Positions 1,153 to 22,295 of a stretch of DNA of 64,000 bases are shown here, piece after piece. Every line of letters begins with the position of its first letter. Position 1 is the stretch's first letter. The position numbers and the translations under genes are program-made. A model generated the notes under the pieces. It did not search any database. It was not told the origin of the DNA and saw only the letters and a program-made list of their open reading frames with translations. Source of the stretch: an uncultured bacterium (lineage in GTDB: Bacteria; Babelota; Babeliae; Babelales; Vermiphilaceae); assembly GCA_963701085.1 (NCBI GenBank), contig OY969561.1, positions 1,088,001 to 1,152,000 on the forward strand, written 5' to 3'.

Positions 1153-1203
1153 CCTGTCCTTCGTCCTTCGACAAGCTCAGGATGAGCGGAGAGCGAAGTA
1201 GGA
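1153..1203. repeat. Family-B hairpin with a family-A arm (1165-1190) nested in its loop
   Basis: cctgtccttcgt[ccttcgacaagctcaggatgagcgga]gagcgaagtagga. Confidence 0.8.
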
Positions 1204-3116: not shown

Positions 3117-3299
3117 AATATTCTCATTATTTAATGTATGTGTCCTTATTATTAGCGTATATTTATTTTCTATTTTCGCAAATGGGGTCTCAAAAAGCCT
3201 TGTTAATGCTGTTTTTATGGGAAAATGGCTGTATACTGAGGGTATATAGGGATTTTTGGGGGGTTAAAAAGTTCCATTTCTTGTTAAATGTTCTTTCCT

Positions 3300-3693
3300 C
3301 GCGCTCGTCCTGAGTTTGTCGAAGGATATCTTCGAGCGCAGTATTAAGAGTTAAATATGCAAAATTACTTTTATCTGTATATTTTAAAATGTGTTAATGG
3401 TGCCTATTATGTAGGGCATACAGATAATATTGAACAGCGTCTGTCAGAGCATCATTTGGGTGTAATTAGTAATTGTTATACAAAAAATAAAAGACCTTTA
3501 GAGCTTGTGTTCCTACAGGATTTTCCTACAAGGGATGCTGCATTTCATGCAGAGCGCCAAGTTAAAGGATGGTCTCGTAAGAAAAAAGAAGCATTGATGA
3601 GAAGCGATTGGGAAGAAATAAGACAATTAAATGTTTTACATAAGAAACAAAGATCGCTCGAGGATATCCTTCGACAAACTCAGGACGAGCGCG
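3300..3693 (+). mobile_element. GIY-YIG cassette 1 bounded by inverted family-A repeats
   Basis: 3300-3338 and 3655-3693 are inverted repeats matching at 38/39 nt. Confidence 0.8.
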
Positions 3694-3704
3694 GGGAAGA
3701 ATAG
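3357..3704 (+). CDS. Small GIY-YIG endonuclease (UPF0213-like), copy 1; C-terminus reads through the right repeat
   Basis: YLYILKC..GAYYVGHT..R..EH, YTK..RP and AERQVKGWSRKKKEAL motifs. Confidence 0.92.
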   Translation: MQNYFYLYILKCVNGAYYVGHTDNIEQRLSEHHLGVISNCYTKNKRPLELVFLQDFPTRDAAFHAERQVKGWSRKKKEALMRSDWEEIRQLNVLHKKQRSLEDILRQTQDERGEE

Positions 3705-3742: not shown

Positions 3743-4405
3743 ATGAATAAGCATGATAAAGCGGCATTAATAGAGCAATTGCTCGCGTATGTGACGGATA
3801 ATAAGCGTGAAAAAATGCAGGCAGTGCTTGTAAACCGCACTCGTTATATTACCGTTATCTTGGAAGATCTCTTTCAGCCGCACAATGCGAGTGCTGCATT
3901 GCGTACCTGTGATATTTTTGGAGTTCAGGATGTTCATGTGGTGGAGGCAAAACATACTTTTAAAGCAATTCCAACCATTGCTATGGGATCATCAAAATGG
4001 GTTGATGTGTATTCTTATTCATTAATCACCGATTCAATTACTGAGCTGAAAAAGCAGGGGTATCGAATAGTTGCAACAACACCACATACTGATTGTTACG
4101 AGCTACCAAATTTGCCACTTGATCAAAAAACAGCACTTGTTTTTGGTAGTGAACAAACCGGGTTATCGGAGGCTGCTTTAGCCCAGGCTGATACGTTTGT
4201 TAAAATACCCATGTATGGCTTTGTGGAAAGTTTTAATGTATCTGTGAGCGTTGCTCTTTGTTTGTATGATGTTATTAATAGATTACATCGTTCATCATAT
4301 GTATGGCAGCTTTCTGAGGACGAAAAGCACGATATCATGCTTGCATGGATTCGTAGGATATCTCAAACGGCAGCATTGCTTGAAAAAGCAGAAAAATTGG
4401 ATTAA
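3743..4405 (+). CDS. trmH: SpoU-family tRNA G18 2'-O-methyltransferase
   Basis: PHNASAALRTCD, FGSEQTG and IPMYGFVESFNVSVS motifs. Confidence 0.9.
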   Translation: MNKHDKAALIEQLLAYVTDNKREKMQAVLVNRTRYITVILEDLFQPHNASAALRTCDIFGVQDVHVVEAKHTFKAIPTIAMGSSKWVDVYSYSLITDSITELKKQGYRIVATTPHTDCYELPNLPLDQKTALVFGSEQTGLSEAALAQADTFVKIPMYGFVESFNVSVSVALCLYDVINRLHRSSYVWQLSEDEKHDIMLAWIRRISQTAALLEKAEKLD

Positions 4406-10920: not shown

Positions 10921-11811
10921 ATGTGTAATATGGTAATAAAAAGAATAGAGATAAGAAGATTGGCATATTGTTTGAAAAAGGAGAGTCAATTGAAGAGAAT
11001 AATGTGTGTATTACCATTACTCGTTAGTGCGCTCATAATATATCCATCAGAAAAAAATATTATGCTTGAATCATCAGTAATAAAAGTAGCAGATGGCACG
11101 TTTCTTAATGCCGATAAAATAGAGTTTATTAGAAAATTTCGTCGAACATTACTTACGTTTATTTTTGGTGACCAGCTCTCTAATAATCAACGCAAGGGTA
11201 AGTACTTCTTTTGTGGTAAGTGGCATGGTGTAGAGTCTCTTGCCCGCATTGAGCAAGAATTGGCTACTTCAACACGCAAAGAAGATGTTGAAAAACGACT
11301 TGCAATTGAAGAATTGTTAACGCACGCTAAAGCGGATTTTATTGTCCAATCAAGTGAATTTATCGAAAGTGGACGTGGTGCAAAAAACATTATGGTTGTG
11401 CTTATTCAAGAAGATTGTCAAAAGCGTAATCGCCTGGATAGTTTGTTGTTAGATTGGGCTAAGACCAAAGAAGGGCAAGAATCAACAATGTTTGAACGTC
11501 AGATCACCAGTTTTGGTCATTATTATTATTTTTTGACTGATTTGGTGAATTTTTTATTGGATCTTGTCCATAGTTGTCCCAAAGCAGAAAAACAGTTTAA
11601 AGATCGTGTTGCAAAGTGGAGTGCTGTTAAAGCGATACTACCAACTGTGTTAAAAAAAGCGCATGTAAAAAATGAGTATGTTAATGAAATTGAATTTCTT
11701 AAATATCTTAAAGAGCGGTATCTTGATTCAATAATGCTGAATGAGATTACTCCTCAGGTTATTGTTCCTTTATTAACAGAATATATAAAACATACGAATG
11801 CACATGCCTGA
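10921..11811 (+). CDS. Hypothetical protein (start uncertain)
   Basis: 296-aa ORF overlapping the recD2 start. Confidence 0.7.
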   Translation: MCNMVIKRIEIRRLAYCLKKESQLKRIMCVLPLLVSALIIYPSEKNIMLESSVIKVADGTFLNADKIEFIRKFRRTLLTFIFGDQLSNNQRKGKYFFCGKWHGVESLARIEQELATSTRKEDVEKRLAIEELLTHAKADFIVQSSEFIESGRGAKNIMVVLIQEDCQKRNRLDSLLLDWAKTKEGQESTMFERQITSFGHYYYFLTDLVNFLLDLVHSCPKAEKQFKDRVAKWSAVKAILPTVLKKAHVKNEYVNEIEFLKYLKERYLDSIMLNEITPQVIVPLLTEYIKHTNAHA

Positions 11812-14092
11812 AATTGAATCCTTACAAGGAGTTGTTGATCGCGTTATTTATCAAAATCAAGAAAATGGCTTTGCTGTTTTTGTTATCCAACTGAACGCAA
11901 AAAATAGTGTTACTGTCAAAGGATGTGTGCCGACAATTACTGCTGGCGAACAGGTATTGGTGAGCGGCGTTTGGAATATGCATCAAAAATTTGGCAAACA
12001 GTTTGATGCGCAATCATGTGAAAAGCAGGCGCCGACTTCTATTCTTGGTCTTAAAAAATATTTGGGTTCGGGGCTTATCAAAGGTATTGGTCCGGTTTAT
12101 GGTGATAAGCTGGTAGCAGCTTTTGGTGAAAAAGTTCTTGAAGTTATTGATCAACATCCTGAGCGTCTTATGTCTGTTCCCGGTATTGGTGCTAAGCGTG
12201 TTGAAAAAATTGTCACTGCCTGGAAAGATCAAAAAGAGATTTCCAACATCATGGTTTTTTTGCAAAATAAAGGAATTTCTTCTACCTATGCAGTAAAAAT
12301 TTATAAGCAGTACAAAGAAAACGCTATTGCTATTATTGAGGAAAATCCATATCGCCTTGCACAAGATATGTGGGGTATTGGTTTTAAGACTGCTGATCAG
12401 ATAGCGCAAAAAAGTGGTATTGCTCCTGATTGTAAGCGACGCATTGTGGCAGCAATTTTACATGTTATTCAGACAACATCGAGTGATGGTAATTTGTATA
12501 TACAGCTCGAATTGCTTAAAAAAGAGATGGCAGAGTTGCTTGAGTTGGAACTTGAAGGCATTCAGCATACAACAAAATGTGCGCTGCATGATCTGTATAA
12601 TGCTGATAAAATAAAATTATTAACGCATAACGATATTCATTATATTACGTTGCCTTCATTTTATTTTTCTGAAAAAGGTATTGCGCATAAAATTGATAAA
12701 ATGGTCACATCGGCACCACATCATACATTTGATTTGGAGAAAATAAAAAAAAATTTATGGAATGATTCCTGTTTAAATCATTCTTCCCGCGCTCGTCCTG
12801 AACCTGTTGAAGGATGTCCCCGAGCGCTCGAAGAAACCCTTCAACAAGTTCAGGGCGAGCGCAAGGAGATGCATAACAATGGTATTGCCCTTAATGAACA
12901 GCAGCAGGAAGGTGTGCTCGCCTGTTTGCAGCACAAAGTTACTATTATTACTGGTGGCCCGGGAACGGGTAAAACAACACTTATTAAAAAATTATTAATG
13001 CTGCTTGATCTACAACGAGTTAAATATGCACTTGCAGCCCCAACAGGAAGAGCGGCAAAACGTATTACGGAAGGCACAGGAAGGCCCGCTTCTACTATTC
13101 ATCGGTTGCTTGATTTTGATGTAAGTACCATGTCTTTTAGATACAATGAATCCCATCCTCTTGCGGTTGATTATCTGATTGTTGATGAAGCATCGATGAT
13201 TGATGTGTTTCTTGCGAACGCATTGATTAAAGCATTGCCAGCATCGGCACATCTTGTGTTGATTGGTGATATTGATCAGTTGCCATCAGTTGGTGCGGGT
13301 AATTTTTTACATGATATGATTGCGAGTAAAAAAATTGCCACCATAAGTCTTAAGCATATATTTAGGCAAGCGCAAGATAGCCTTATTATTATTAATGCCC
13401 ATCGTATTAACAATGGAGAATTCCCAACGACGGAACATGAAAATTCGCGCAAAGATTTTATTTTTATTAAAGAAGATAATCCAGAAAATATACCAATGCA
13501 TTTGGAAGCTATTTATAGTAAAGCATTACGTCATTATGGCATCCACAAAGATGATACAATTGTACTCACACCGATGCATCGTGGCGTTGCAGGAACACAA
13601 AAATTAAATCATGATTTGCAACAGCTGTTGAATGGTAATAATGGTGGACCGGCTGTTGGGTATGCAGGAGCGCAGTTTCAGGTTGGTGATCGAGTGATGC
13701 AGCTGCGTAATAATTATGATAAAAATGTGTTTAATGGTGATATTGGGGTTATTGAAAGCATTAATGCAGAAGATAAAATAGTGCACGTACGTTTTTTTGA
13801 AAATATTGTTGATTATGAAACATCAGATCTTAATGAATTGGTGCATGCGTATGCAATTTCTATTCATAAAAGCCAAGGATCTGAATTTTCTGCCGTTATT
13901 ATTCCGGTTTTTATGCAGCATTTTATGATGCTGCAACGAAATTTACTGTATACCGCCGTTACGCGTGCAAAAAAATTATGTATAATCATAGGGCAATCGC
14001 GTGCTATTGCAATGGGAATAAAAAATAATAAAAGCAGCGAGCGTATTACGTTTTTACAACAATTTTTGACAACAGATTTAGCATGCCGATAA
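11804..14092 (+). CDS. recD2: RecD2-like ATP-dependent helicase with in-frame repeat insertion
   Basis: GIGP HhH, GGPGTGKT, APTGRAAKR, DEASM, HKSQGSEF motifs. Confidence 0.95.
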   Translation: MPEIESLQGVVDRVIYQNQENGFAVFVIQLNAKNSVTVKGCVPTITAGEQVLVSGVWNMHQKFGKQFDAQSCEKQAPTSILGLKKYLGSGLIKGIGPVYGDKLVAAFGEKVLEVIDQHPERLMSVPGIGAKRVEKIVTAWKDQKEISNIMVFLQNKGISSTYAVKIYKQYKENAIAIIEENPYRLAQDMWGIGFKTADQIAQKSGIAPDCKRRIVAAILHVIQTTSSDGNLYIQLELLKKEMAELLELELEGIQHTTKCALHDLYNADKIKLLTHNDIHYITLPSFYFSEKGIAHKIDKMVTSAPHHTFDLEKIKKNLWNDSCLNHSSRARPEPVEGCPRALEETLQQVQGERKEMHNNGIALNEQQQEGVLACLQHKVTIITGGPGTGKTTLIKKLLMLLDLQRVKYALAAPTGRAAKRITEGTGRPASTIHRLLDFDVSTMSFRYNESHPLAVDYLIVDEASMIDVFLANALIKALPASAHLVLIGDIDQLPSVGAGNFLHDMIASKKIATISLKHIFRQAQDSLIIINAHRINNGEFPTTEHENSRKDFIFIKEDNPENIPMHLEAIYSKALRHYGIHKDDTIVLTPMHRGVAGTQKLNHDLQQLLNGNNGGPAVGYAGAQFQVGDRVMQLRNNYDKNVFNGDIGVIESINAEDKIVHVRFFENIVDYETSDLNELVHAYAISIHKSQGSEFSAVIIPVFMQHFMMLQRNLLYTAVTRAKKLCIIIGQSRAIAMGIKNNKSSERITFLQQFLTTDLACR
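12788..12862. repeat. Empty family-A doublet read in-frame within recD2
   Basis: Two inverted arms fused at cgagcgctcg; encodes RARPEPVEGCPRALEETLQQVQGER. Confidence 0.9.
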
Positions 14093-14814: not shown

Positions 14815-15222
14815 TTCCCGCGCTCGTCCTGAACTTGTTGAAGGATGTCCTAGAGCGCTCTTAATAGAGATAATAAATATGCAAAATCATTTTTACATGT
14901 ACATTTTAAAATGCATAAATGGTGCATATTATGTTGGACATACAGATAATATTGATAAAAGAATGTCCGAACATAATTTAGGTTTAATTAGTGGTTGTTA
15001 TACTAAAAATAAATGGCCCCTAGAGCTTGTGTGTCTTGAAGTTTTTTCAACGAGAGATGATGCATTTCATGCGGAGAGACAAGTTAAAGGTTGGTCGCGC
15101 AAGAAAAAAGAAGCTTTTATACAAAATGATTGGGACAAAATTAAAAAACTTAATTTTTTACAAAAATAATGATGGGGAGCGCTCGAGGACATCCTTCAAC
15201 AAGTTCAGGACGAGCGCGGGAA
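14815..15222 (+). mobile_element. GIY-YIG cassette 2 bounded by inverted family-A repeats
   Basis: 14815-14860 and 15177-15222 are inverted repeats matching at 45/46 nt. Confidence 0.85.
14879..15169 (+). CDS. Small GIY-YIG endonuclease, copy 2
   Basis: About 74% identical to 3357-3704 over 96 aa (counted by eye). Confidence 0.92.
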   Translation: MQNHFYMYILKCINGAYYVGHTDNIDKRMSEHNLGLISGCYTKNKWPLELVCLEVFSTRDDAFHAERQVKGWSRKKKEAFIQNDWDKIKKLNFLQK

Positions 15223-21401: not shown

Positions 21402-22295
21402 CTATTCCTTACCATATTTCTGAATTTTATAGGACATGGTTTTCCAGATAGCATCTTGCATATTCTTAGGGAATGTGGACCACATTGTTATTAATTCTTT
21501 ATAAGGGATAGTACATTTTAATGCTACATCCTTTATAAGATTTTCAGGTGTATCTATTTTCTTATTTGGTTTTTCAATAAGTAGCCATGTGAGCAGGGCT
21601 TTCTTGAGCAGCAGTTGCTCTAATGTATAATCAGCATAACGCGCAAATATACGTATTTTGTGATCATCTGAAGTTGTTGCAACGAGCTTTCCCTCGACGT
21701 CACAGCAGGCTGAACAAGGCGGGCTGCCAGGTGAAAAAGAATCAATTTTTTGATATGTTTGTCTATCAAAGATATGTACTTTGCCAAACAATGATACAGT
21801 TGCAATGAATCTTCCAGGTCGGCTAAAGTAGTCTAAATAATCCGAGTCATCAAGTTCATATGAAAGAACTCTTTGCTGTTTTTGTATATTAAATCTCTGC
21901 ACTTTGCCACTATGTGATGCTATTTCAAGGTATTCTTTAGAGGGATAAAAGCAAACTGAGGCAAATTTGTAGTTACCATAATTAAAAGAAGCAATTTCTT
22001 GATGTTTTTGTATATCAAATATACGTGCCTGGCCATTAATGAATGATGATGCTGTTGCAAGGAGGTTTCCAGAAGGGTCAAAGCAGATTGAAGTAATGTA
22101 GCTACTATGTTCAAATATTTTATCTAAATACCACCATTGTTTTAGGTTTACATGGTTAATGATTTCTTGTTTAACGTCATTGGAGATGGTATGTTGCAAC
22201 GGAATTAGGTTGCATAGTTGTTTACGTTGCAACTCCATGCCTGTTAAGGAAAAATATATAGTAGTTGTAAGAACATACGCATATATTGTGTTCAT
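21402..22295 (-). CDS. Secreted WD40-repeat protein
   Basis: ITSICFDPSGNLLATAS..ARIFD-type repeats; signal peptide LTG|ME. Confidence 0.85.
   Translation of the reverse strand: MNTIYAYVLTTTIYFSLTGMELQRKQLCNLIPLQHTISNDVKQEIINHVNLKQWWYLDKIFEHSSYITSICFDPSGNLLATASSFINGQARIFDIQKHQEIASFNYGNYKFASVCFYPSKEYLEIASHSGKVQRFNIQKQQRVLSYELDDSDYLDYFSRPGRFIATVSLFGKVHIFDRQTYQKIDSFSPGSPPCSACCDVEGKLVATTSDDHKIRIFARYADYTLEQLLLKKALLTWLLIEKPNKKIDTPENLIKDVALKCTIPYKELITMWSTFPKNMQDAIWKTMSYKIQKYGKE

Follow-up and report, generated by a model that had tools for sequence, protein, structure and literature searches.

UPF0213-like GIY-YIG nuclease genes enclosed by a conserved hairpin repeat in a Vermiphilaceae genome and in other bacteria

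Cassettes and dispersed hairpins of the window

The DNA under investigation, hereafter the window, is a stretch of 64,000 nt (contig OY969561.1, positions 1,088,001 to 1,152,000) from the genome of an uncultured bacterium of the Vermiphilaceae; all coordinates given without a locus label refer to it. It harbors two cassettes in which a small gene encoding a GIY-YIG nuclease is enclosed by inverted repeats, each arm containing a hairpin (Table 1). Cassette 1 (14815-15222, 408 nt) is composed of a 46-nt left arm, an 18-nt spacer, an open reading frame (ORF) for 96 amino acids, and a 46-nt right arm, which is the reverse complement of the left one at 45/46 positions; a repeat search stretches the arms to 55 nt, with 91% identity. 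The arms fold as hairpins in single-stranded DNA (ssDNA), the left one with -7.0 kcal/mol (z -1.9) and the right one with -9.3 kcal/mol (z -3.4), so that the arrangement described in an earlier note on this DNA is found as it was drawn there. When three mismatches at most are allowed, a 32-nt pattern of the arm matches the window six times, against an expectation of none, and this count was reached in 0/100 shuffles. The second cassette reported in the same note is also present, in an unrelated context; cassette 2 (3295-3698) has arms of 44 nt with 95% identity and the same plan as cassette 1, the distance between the arms being 316 nt in both cases.

The copy 1 protein matches the GIY-YIG family and no other family above cut-off. 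Across 50 aligned sequences, Y8, Y18, G20, R28, and E66 do not vary, and the catalytic Tyr, Tyr, Arg, and Glu are among them. A profile search of the PDB retrieved the UPF0213 proteins 1zg2 (5.5e-21) and 1ywl (9.1e-18), and Bacillus subtilis YazA shares 43% identity with the window protein (6e-21), in agreement with the UPF0213-like nature that had been attributed to it. The proteins of the two copies share 74% identity (71/96 residues) and the genes are 78% identical at the DNA level; with a synonymous divergence (dS) of 1.35 and a ratio of nonsynonymous to synonymous divergence (dN/dS) of 0.10, they are old paralogues, both of which are under purifying selection.

The hairpin also recurs in the window without the gene, as had been noticed before. 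A covariance model detected 14 strong hairpins in the 64 kb (E 1e-9 to 3.9e-6), i.e., the four cassette arms, eight hairpins in four abutting doublets, and two singles. Each doublet consists of two head-to-head hairpins with a common central self-complementary GAGCGCTC; a cassette is thus a doublet with a gene at its center, and a doublet is a cassette minus the 316-nt interior. The rare core variant of cassette 1 (TGAACNTGTTGAA) is carried by 8/10 solo hairpins, and the variant of cassette 2 has no solo copy in the window.

Table 1. Coordinates of the cassettes, gene-less hairpins, and unusual hairpin variants (positions in the window unless a locus label is given).
Feature	Position	Strand	Remarks
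Cassette 1 left arm	14815..14860	+	hairpin 14818-14854; core variant TGAACTTGTTGAA; covariance model 31.4 bits, E 5.9e-7
GIY-YIG nuclease gene copy 1	14879..15169	+	96 amino acids, single domain; PF01541 E 2e-18, residues 5-77
Cassette 1 right arm	15177..15222	-	hairpin 15183-15219; covariance model 36.8 bits; fold z -3.4
Cassette 2 left arm	3295..3338	+	hairpin 3299-3335; core variant TGAGTTTGTCGAA; covariance model 37.1 bits
GIY-YIG nuclease gene copy 2	3357..3704	+	115 amino acids; GIY-YIG E 1.3e-17; ORF extends into right arm
Cassette 2 right arm	3655..3698	-	hairpin 3658-3694; covariance model 38.4 bits
Doublet	12787..12864		in frame within RecD2 helicase ORF 11798-14092; -28.3 kcal/mol, z -6.5
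Doublet	50985..51063		3' end of truncated ddl-like ORF
Doublet	52639..52716		intergenic; hairpin stems differ, GCCC/GGGT and GTCC/GGAT
Doublet	63691..63768		intergenic; one hairpin with compensated stem GGTC/GACT
Single hairpin	1155..1191	-	intergenic; consensus core TGAGCTTGTCGAA; 39.9 bits
Single hairpin, degenerate	56821..56857	-	intergenic; 28.7 bits
Nested hairpins	L006 10272-10308; L029 10278-10314; L013 15722-15758; L021 9936-9987; L067 9933-9978; L061 9913-9957		
Tandem core duplications	L008 9935-9960, 10368-10393; L014 5340-5365, 8069-8094, 8468-8493; L032 10618-10643; L040 705-730, 5617-5642; L048 1000-1059		

The hairpin and its nuclease in other bacteria

The structure of the hairpin was derived from 231 distinct copies, selected on the core sequence alone. 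Its parts are a conserved 5' tag, CCGTTCG (CGCGCTCG in Babeliales), a 3-4-bp stem with covariation, and a core of 13 nt, TGAGCYTGTCGAA, which is at least 93% conserved at 12/13 positions. The three stem pairs beside the core are paired in 90-91% of the copies, with several pair types at each position; on 148 copies, the covariation score is 0.427 vs. 0.201 in shuffled alignments (0/500 shuffles that high), and sliding the 3' partner by 1-3 columns as a control gives 0.187 at most. Since the 5' side is conserved and the 3' side is not, the hairpin has an orientation, as have the NTS repeats described below. In the core, the facing positions 1/13, 2/12, 3/11, and 4/10 are T-A, G-A, A-G, and G-C, respectively; in the lineage of the window, positions 4/10 have changed to A-T in nine copies, and the mixed state was never seen. 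This paired change (G4A/C10T) suggests that the helix may continue into the apparent loop, through tandem G-A pairs, up to a loop of five bases.

Some copies depart from this scheme. In a nested variant, a whole small hairpin is located in the mid-core of another one, between TGAG and TCGAA, which suggests that the center of the core either receives insertions or can accommodate a longer distal stem. In 10 places at 5 loci, a core unit of 14-16 nt (GAGCTTGTCGAAGG) is repeated in tandem, two to four times; slippage could have produced these duplications, or they could be a repair footprint. The hairpin model also gives four weak matches in the window (E 0.011-0.33), at 72-108 and 38170-38207 on the plus strand and at 1-13 and 56672-56708 on the minus strand; two of them hold a GGAGCTTG(T/C)CGAAG core without the usual 5' tag. 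Decay of former copies could explain them, as could a second, related repeat. The window and four further loci contain no Rfam family at gathering score, the matches obtained being at chance level (E up to 5). A 41-nt hairpin query had no match in E. coli genomes, a query so short having limited sensitivity, and neither the core DNA motif nor short peptide translations of the core were found in the literature searched.

The association of gene and repeat, which the earlier note had drawn from the window, extends to the homologues. The sample comprises 80 loci (labeled Lnnn) among the matches listed, with 44-58% identity, relatives at 65-97% not being among them; the two genes of the window and one more copy in L033 bring it to 83 genes, and it spans more than 10 phyla (Pseudomonadota, Chloroflexota, Bacteroidota, Nitrospirota, Babeliales, and others). 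When longer core inserts were allowed and the right orientation within 150 nt was demanded, the hairpin was found on both sides of 43/83 genes, on one side of 24/83, and on neither side of 16/83, i.e., at least one side was occupied in 67/83. With a strict definition of the hairpin, these figures are 38, 21, and 24, respectively. At mock positions 4 kb away, a hairpin was present on both sides in 0/139 cases and on one side in 4/139. The inverted-repeat score of the flanks leads to the same picture: in 61/83 genes it lies above every one of about 40 mock pairs from the same locus, and it is 20 or higher in 41/83 genes vs. 2/2,950 mock pairs. Moreover, in 28/31 loci the solo copies are nearer to the flanking copies of their own locus than foreign solo copies are, and doublets also occur in L002, L036, L079, L048, L028, and L039. 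Two Methylobacterium loci show a particular arrangement. The flanks of the genes at L084 1501-1764 and L086 1501-1765 keep TGAG...TCGAA with a core insert of 20-24 nt; in L084 the repeats are inverted with respect to the usual orientation (minus strand upstream, plus strand downstream), and the gene copy of L086 is broken by an in-frame stop.

The connection between a small GIY-YIG nuclease and a hairpin, which was an inference in the earlier note, has been shown at the bench for a related family. Chenal et al. (2025, Nat Commun; PMC11893778) described Ssn as single-domain GIY-YIG proteins of about 94 amino acids (CDD cd10448), whose genes are flanked by hairpin repeats referred to as NTS or, more generally, SRM; with the SRM pattern, a repeat is found near 71% of the Ssn homologues and on both sides of 42%. 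Four purified Ssn enzymes cut ssDNA beside their own hairpin and left double-stranded DNA, RNA, and the reverse strand uncut, and in Neisseria meningitidis the Ssn system reduces transformation by NTS-flanked DNA (PMC11893778). The repeat-nuclease-repeat layout and its comparison with insertion sequences (ISs), REPs (repetitive extragenic palindromes), and RAYTs (REP-associated tyrosine transposases) are therefore already published, and the idea of the earlier note is right in kind without being new in kind. The enzyme branch and the hairpin class described here, on the other hand, appear to be undescribed in the literature searched. The TGAG...TCGAA motif was not found in the text of Chenal et al. 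or in ten of its supplements, further variants being possible in the remaining PDF supplements. Besides that paper, the literature searched yielded nothing linking GIY-YIG with REPs, REPINs (inverted REP doublets), or MITEs (miniature transposable elements with inverted repeats), and no follow-up to it.

The two repeat classes turned out to be mutually exclusive. The published SRM pattern has a match within 300 nt of 0/83 genes and none in the window, and over the 1.42 Mb of the loci it gives 14 matches vs. 11 in shuffles. The same pattern gave four matches in Azospirillum, eight in N. gonorrhoeae, and one per side in Aeromonas and Sphingobium, which served as positive controls; it matches both sides of 4/8 Ssn-type loci, and the TGAGC...GTCGAA core is present in none of these eight. 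The proteins are separated as well. The tree splits eight Ssn-type proteins, the N. gonorrhoeae SsnA orthologue included, from the 85 proteins of the UPF0213-like group with 99% support; it had been repeated with these eight, a lone Azospirillum protein standing on a branch of length 3.3 with unreliable placement. Between the UPF0213-like group and the Ssn type, the median score is 43 bits (median identity 33%), compared with 59 bits (39%) between the group and Firmicute UPF0213 proteins and 29 bits (29%) between the Ssn type and the latter. The N. gonorrhoeae SsnA orthologue scores 37.7 bits against both window proteins, with 30% identity, and 29-59 bits (median 42) against the 83 proteins. 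The separation from Ssn that is proposed here is based on the SRM pattern, the tree, and the scores of this N. gonorrhoeae orthologue, taken as a stand-in for CDD scores.

Among the five Firmicute UPF0213 loci considered, four adjoin trmNF, three have the full trmNF-yazA-rsmI operon, and none has an SRM or a TGAG...TCGAA hairpin. The window cassettes and most of the homologues differ from them, in that they are bracketed by hairpins and are located in varied gene contexts. Two further loci concern the Ssn type. In Sphingomonas liriopis, a gene of the UPF0213-like clade (L054 5914-6295) is flanked by the TGAG...TCGAA hairpin class; the same species is listed by Chenal et al. (PMC11893778) with 577 SRM repeats, 15-fold over shuffles, and an SsnA homologue of more than 60% identity, and two nuclease-hairpin pairs thus appear to coexist in this genome. 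On a Planktothrix agardhii plasmid (L094 598-882), a small Ssn-type GIY-YIG gene has an MmeI-type restriction-modification gene on one side and drmA, the helicase gene of DISARM, on the other, i.e., a defense-gene neighborhood, with no SRM match nearby.

Inheritance, insertion, and competing explanations

The analysis of the loci points to a gene that is inherited mostly vertically, since it is syntenic among congeners (Acidovorax, Flavobacterium, Sphingobium/Sphingomonas, Uliginosibacterium, and two Burkholderiales) and the phylum labels cluster on the protein tree, with 16 changes vs. 35 in shuffles. The two window copies are each other's nearest relatives (100% support), which indicates a duplication, in this lineage, of the entire cassette to another locus. 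In searches of plasmids and phages, all of the matches had less than 60% identity (18 plasmid and 12 phage records), and no carrier of the cassette was found. The earlier note had held that syntenic loci would speak against its parallel with REP/RAYT systems; synteny between species does exist in several genera, yet the parallel stands, because RAYTs behave alike.

Indications of insertion at new sites were obtained as well. The clearest evidence of this comes from the RecD2 protein of the window, which carries an insert of 34 residues at the position of the doublet; the insert is missing from 11/11 aligned homologues (11 chosen from 120 listed, named Babeliales or Dependentiae at source), and the protein is 764 amino acids long vs. 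723-746 in the full-length relatives listed. Cassette 1 takes up 408 of the 497 nt separating two genes of the same strand, which is consistent with an insertion into an operon. As for these neighbors, the amidase of the earlier note is confirmed upstream (Amidase_3, E 1.4e-7), and its GerMN-like label for the downstream gene is weak (Pfam Germane, E 0.1, 13.7 bits vs. a cut-off of 23). Elsewhere, an Ssn-type cassette lies between sufB and sufC in Azospirillum, and in Sphingomonas paeninsulae the interval from rnc to era is occupied by a cassette whose gene copy has an in-frame stop. Six element ends were inspected without evidence of a direct target-site duplication, the inverted repeat running a few bases on into a pyrimidine-rich flank. 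A promoter and terminator scan in and beside the cassette gave nothing exceeding shuffles. The scan of the 56 window ORFs for a RAYT, Y1_Tnp, or any other transposase family, by which the earlier note would have recognized a different owner of the repeats, gave none.

Other features of the window are worth recording. Two tandem D-Ala-D-Ala ligase genes occupy 49308-51610 on the minus strand, and the first is apparently broken at the doublet 50985-51063: the ORF 50987-51610 encodes the Ddl N-domain only and ends at the outer edge of the doublet, and the ORF 49308-50804 opens with the terminal portion of a Ddl C-domain (85-204 of the 204 profile positions) and goes on with a second, complete Ddl. 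Cassette 2 is situated between a thioredoxin gene and, directly 3' of it, a gene for a SpoU/TrmH-type RNA methyltransferase (3743-4405); such a gene is also located about 80-125 nt 3' of the nuclease gene in the sphingomonad loci L006, L013, L021, and L067, and a further one is found at L082 3312-4043. The idea that this methyltransferase is a general partner was dropped, since only 5/83 cases have it downstream, and four of these belong to a single syntenic group. Dunin-Horkawicz et al. (2006; PMC1564403) reported that a TrmH orthologue is fused with a GIY-YIG domain of the bacterial Slx1-like type. Firmicute yazA likewise sits between two RNA methyltransferase genes. Adjoining genes at 38368-39938 on the minus strand encode the primase-polymerase domain (E 8e-92) and the 3'-phosphoesterase domain (E 2e-46) of LigD; these domains are parts of bacterial end-joining repair and could bear on the repair of breaks made by the nuclease. 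The window also encodes WD40, ankyrin-repeat, and Fic-domain proteins (21405-22295, 41305-43826, and 56953-57660), which are common in bacteria living inside eukaryotic cells, in keeping with the Babeliales-like affinity to which the RecD2 homologues point.

On the whole, these data are probably best explained by a sister pair of nuclease and hairpin, formed by UPF0213-like enzymes and working in a way analogous to that of Ssn. A single-domain nuclease of about 96 amino acids, bracketed by two inverted copies of its cognate hairpin, would bind this hairpin in ssDNA, for instance, during replication, repair, or DNA uptake; by analogy with Ssn, it would read one strand only and cut close to the 5' tag. 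The dispersed doublets would be gene-less relatives of the cassette, comparable to the REPINs beside a RAYT, and cassette and doublets would have been inserted at new sites over long times (the operon gap, the helicase coding region, and, for the two paralogous cassettes, unrelated loci), with the gene remaining mostly vertical and kept by purifying selection. Several points weigh against this explanation. The activity is carried over from Ssn proteins that are only about 33% identical (median 43 bits), and the window clade is nearer to Firmicute UPF0213 proteins (59 bits), which are repeat-free, so that the hairpin association is not common to all close relatives. Depending on the definition used, 16 to 24 of the 83 homologues have no flanking hairpin (at least two of them lie at contig ends). 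The synteny among congeners is what one would expect of a host's resident gene more than of an active mobile element; from the dS of 1.35 between the window copies, no recent movement is seen, and we know of no strand-transfer chemistry for a hydrolytic GIY-YIG nuclease.

The main competitor places these genes within the Ssn family itself (cd10448), the repeat having merely drifted beyond the SRM search pattern. Size, single domain, and repeat-gene-repeat layout are those of Ssn, the window protein is 37% identical (7e-17) to an SRM-flanked Azospirillum protein, and Chenal et al. (PMC11893778) expect many enzyme-repeat pairs. In Supplementary Data 4 of that paper, the entries for 8/9 species with a gene of the UPF0213-like clade are positive for an SsnA homologue and for a strict cd10448 protein, and 7 of these 8 have no SRM enrichment. 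These scores are not counted here as support for cd10448 membership, because the N. gonorrhoeae stand-in reaches only the 29-59 bits given above, by estimate mostly too weak for the paper's threshold (E<1e-10) in a genome-sized search; the scores of the eight species may stem from other paralogues. In the same table, Thalassolituus pacificus, which has the clade gene of L014, fails both the tblastn and the strict cd10448 tests, and B. subtilis, whose YazA is closer to the clade than Ssn is, is not strict cd10448. If the well-supported split of the tree is also considered, membership in Ssn is unlikely, though it deserves attention. An autonomous IS-like transposon that is still moving, with the GIY-YIG protein as transposase, the arms as terminal inverted repeats, and the doublets as MITEs, would agree with the geometry of the arms, with the relation between doublet and cassette, with two cassettes at unrelated loci, with insertions into operons and a coding region, and with the cassette 1 core variant of the solo copies. 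The lack of evident target-site duplications at six element ends, the ancient divergence of two copies that are sisters in the tree, the synteny among congeners and the clustering of phyla, and the absence of a promoter-like site above chance within the cassette make such a transposon quite unlikely, the more so as GIY-YIG enzymes hydrolyze DNA and, as a matter of general knowledge, are not known to join strands.

It might also be supposed that the nuclease is a homing-type parasite, which cuts empty doublets and is copied into them by repair, the repeats spreading by other means. Each window gene lies exactly at the center of a would-be doublet, cassette 1 has the central GAGCGCTC on its two sides and cassette 2 has it there in part, and GIY-YIG homing endonucleases do exist (PMC1564403). 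The gene, however, occupies only 2/6 doublet-type sites of the window, and both genes are old paralogues; in other phyla, it is located between separate doublets (e.g., L071, L075, and L081), no additional domain for DNA binding is present in the protein, and TIGR01453, the NCBIfam model of group I intron endonucleases, gives only E 0.0066, 16.5 bits vs. a cut-off of 56. We consider homing very unlikely on these grounds. Lastly, the hairpins could be signals at the RNA level (terminators, stabilizers, or attenuators) that lie near the gene by chance, the nuclease being an unrelated housekeeping enzyme. They are mostly intergenic, such roles have been assigned to REPs in published abstracts, and the fourth stem pair is most often G-T (66/231 vs. 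25/231 for A-C), which means that one strand is favored, as in an RNA or ssDNA structure. But the flanking copies are on opposite strands, so that only one of them could act in the mRNA; no Rfam family was recognized, the hairpin has no T-run, and one doublet is translated in frame. The association is also specific to the gene, given that a hairpin on each side was seen at 0/139 mock positions, and RNA is no ligand of the Ssn enzymes (PMC11893778), all of which renders the RNA explanation extremely improbable.

Thus, a UPF0213-like enzyme paired with its own hairpin remains our preferred explanation. In the earlier note, the nuclease was moreover assumed to drive the spread of the repeats, a claim that finds support neither here nor in the accessible parts of PMC11893778, and we doubt that the nuclease is the engine of spreading. 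The broader version of this idea, in which a second pan-bacterial nuclease-hairpin partnership, separate from the cd10448 Ssn, copies doublets around genomes, is likewise improbable. If true, it would be an analogue of REPIN/RAYT based on a different catalytic fold, which could set repeats in frame into essential genes (RecD2, for instance), and the conservation of one repeat family all the way from Babeliales to Sphingomonas, Flavobacterium, and Dehalococcoidia would be accounted for. Such enzymes may copy the repeats, police them, or use them as marks on incoming or replicating DNA, roles between which sequences do not discriminate.

These observations matter for more than one reason. Chenal et al. 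(PMC11893778) left the biological role of Ssn outside Neisseria open, and here a branch so far known as an uncharacterized repair-type protein has its own cognate hairpin, whose 13-nt core is almost invariant across more than 10 phyla. If the proposed explanation holds, small GIY-YIG nucleases may have been associated with hairpins earlier and more widely than cd10448 alone would imply, and a second, very different recognition element might become available for site-specific ssDNA nucleases, which have been proposed as tools (PMC11893778). Annotators could also recognize a common repeat behind spurious or extended ORFs, such as the in-frame insert of RecD2 and the read-through tail of copy 2. 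Lastly, two divergent cassettes in one small genome, each with its own core variant, represent a natural experiment on the co-evolution of enzyme and hairpin.

Comparison with known systems

The homing endonucleases of the I-TevI type share with the window protein the GIY-YIG catalytic domain and a gene embedded in its likely target; the window protein differs from them in having no DNA-binding extension and no intron or intein context. Its closest sequence relatives are the UPF0213/YazA proteins (1zg2, 1ywl), which are equally minimal domains without an accessory domain; four of the five Firmicute members considered have a fixed trmNF-yazA(-rsmI) context, and neither repeat class occurs at any of the five. 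Dunin-Horkawicz et al. (2006; PMC1564403) treated the UPF0213-type group as vertically inherited repair-type proteins, and repeats are not mentioned in the accessible parts of that paper.

The comparison with repeats leads to CGTC-tagged REPs, later tied to Ssn, and the Rickettsia palindromic elements, which were described by Di Nocera et al. (2013; PMC3733652). No dedicated transposase was identified for them in that paper, which also reported copies inside replication and repair genes. They resemble the hairpins of the window in being short palindromic repeats, mostly arranged as head-to-head dimers, and differ from them in having stems of 8-9 bp, loops of 4-5 nt, and the CGTC tag (PMC3733652).

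RAYTs are HUH/Y1 (IS200-like) tyrosine transposases flanked by REPs. The parallel with REP/RAYT loci that was proposed in the earlier note, REPIN-like doublets included, is tenable as an analogy: in both systems, a single enzyme gene lies between inverted hairpin repeats, gene-less REPIN-like doublets are found in intergenic DNA, and the gene is usually vertical and syntenic among relatives. It is by this analogy only that the doublets of the window can be called REP/RAYT-type. The enzyme of the window is a hydrolytic GIY-YIG nuclease and not an HUH tyrosine transposase, and its hairpin has a large conserved core, whereas REPs have a long stem and a short loop.

The likeness with the Ssn systems, for which the NTS-ssnA-NTS arrangement has itself been likened to an insertion sequence, to RAYT, and to REP (PMC11893778), lies in the architecture. 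The repeats differ in their details: the tag reads CGTC in NTS/SRM and CCGYTCG in the class of the window, the stem measures about 8 bp in the former and 3-4 bp, with covariation, in the latter, and a 3-5-nt loop in NTS/SRM contrasts with a conserved 13-nt core in the window class. The shared features are a single-domain GIY-YIG protein of about 94-97 amino acids without an accessory domain (96 in the window), inverted hairpin repeats on both sides of the gene, repeats dispersed in the genome, often as doublets, and a repeat that is oriented by its conserved 5' part.

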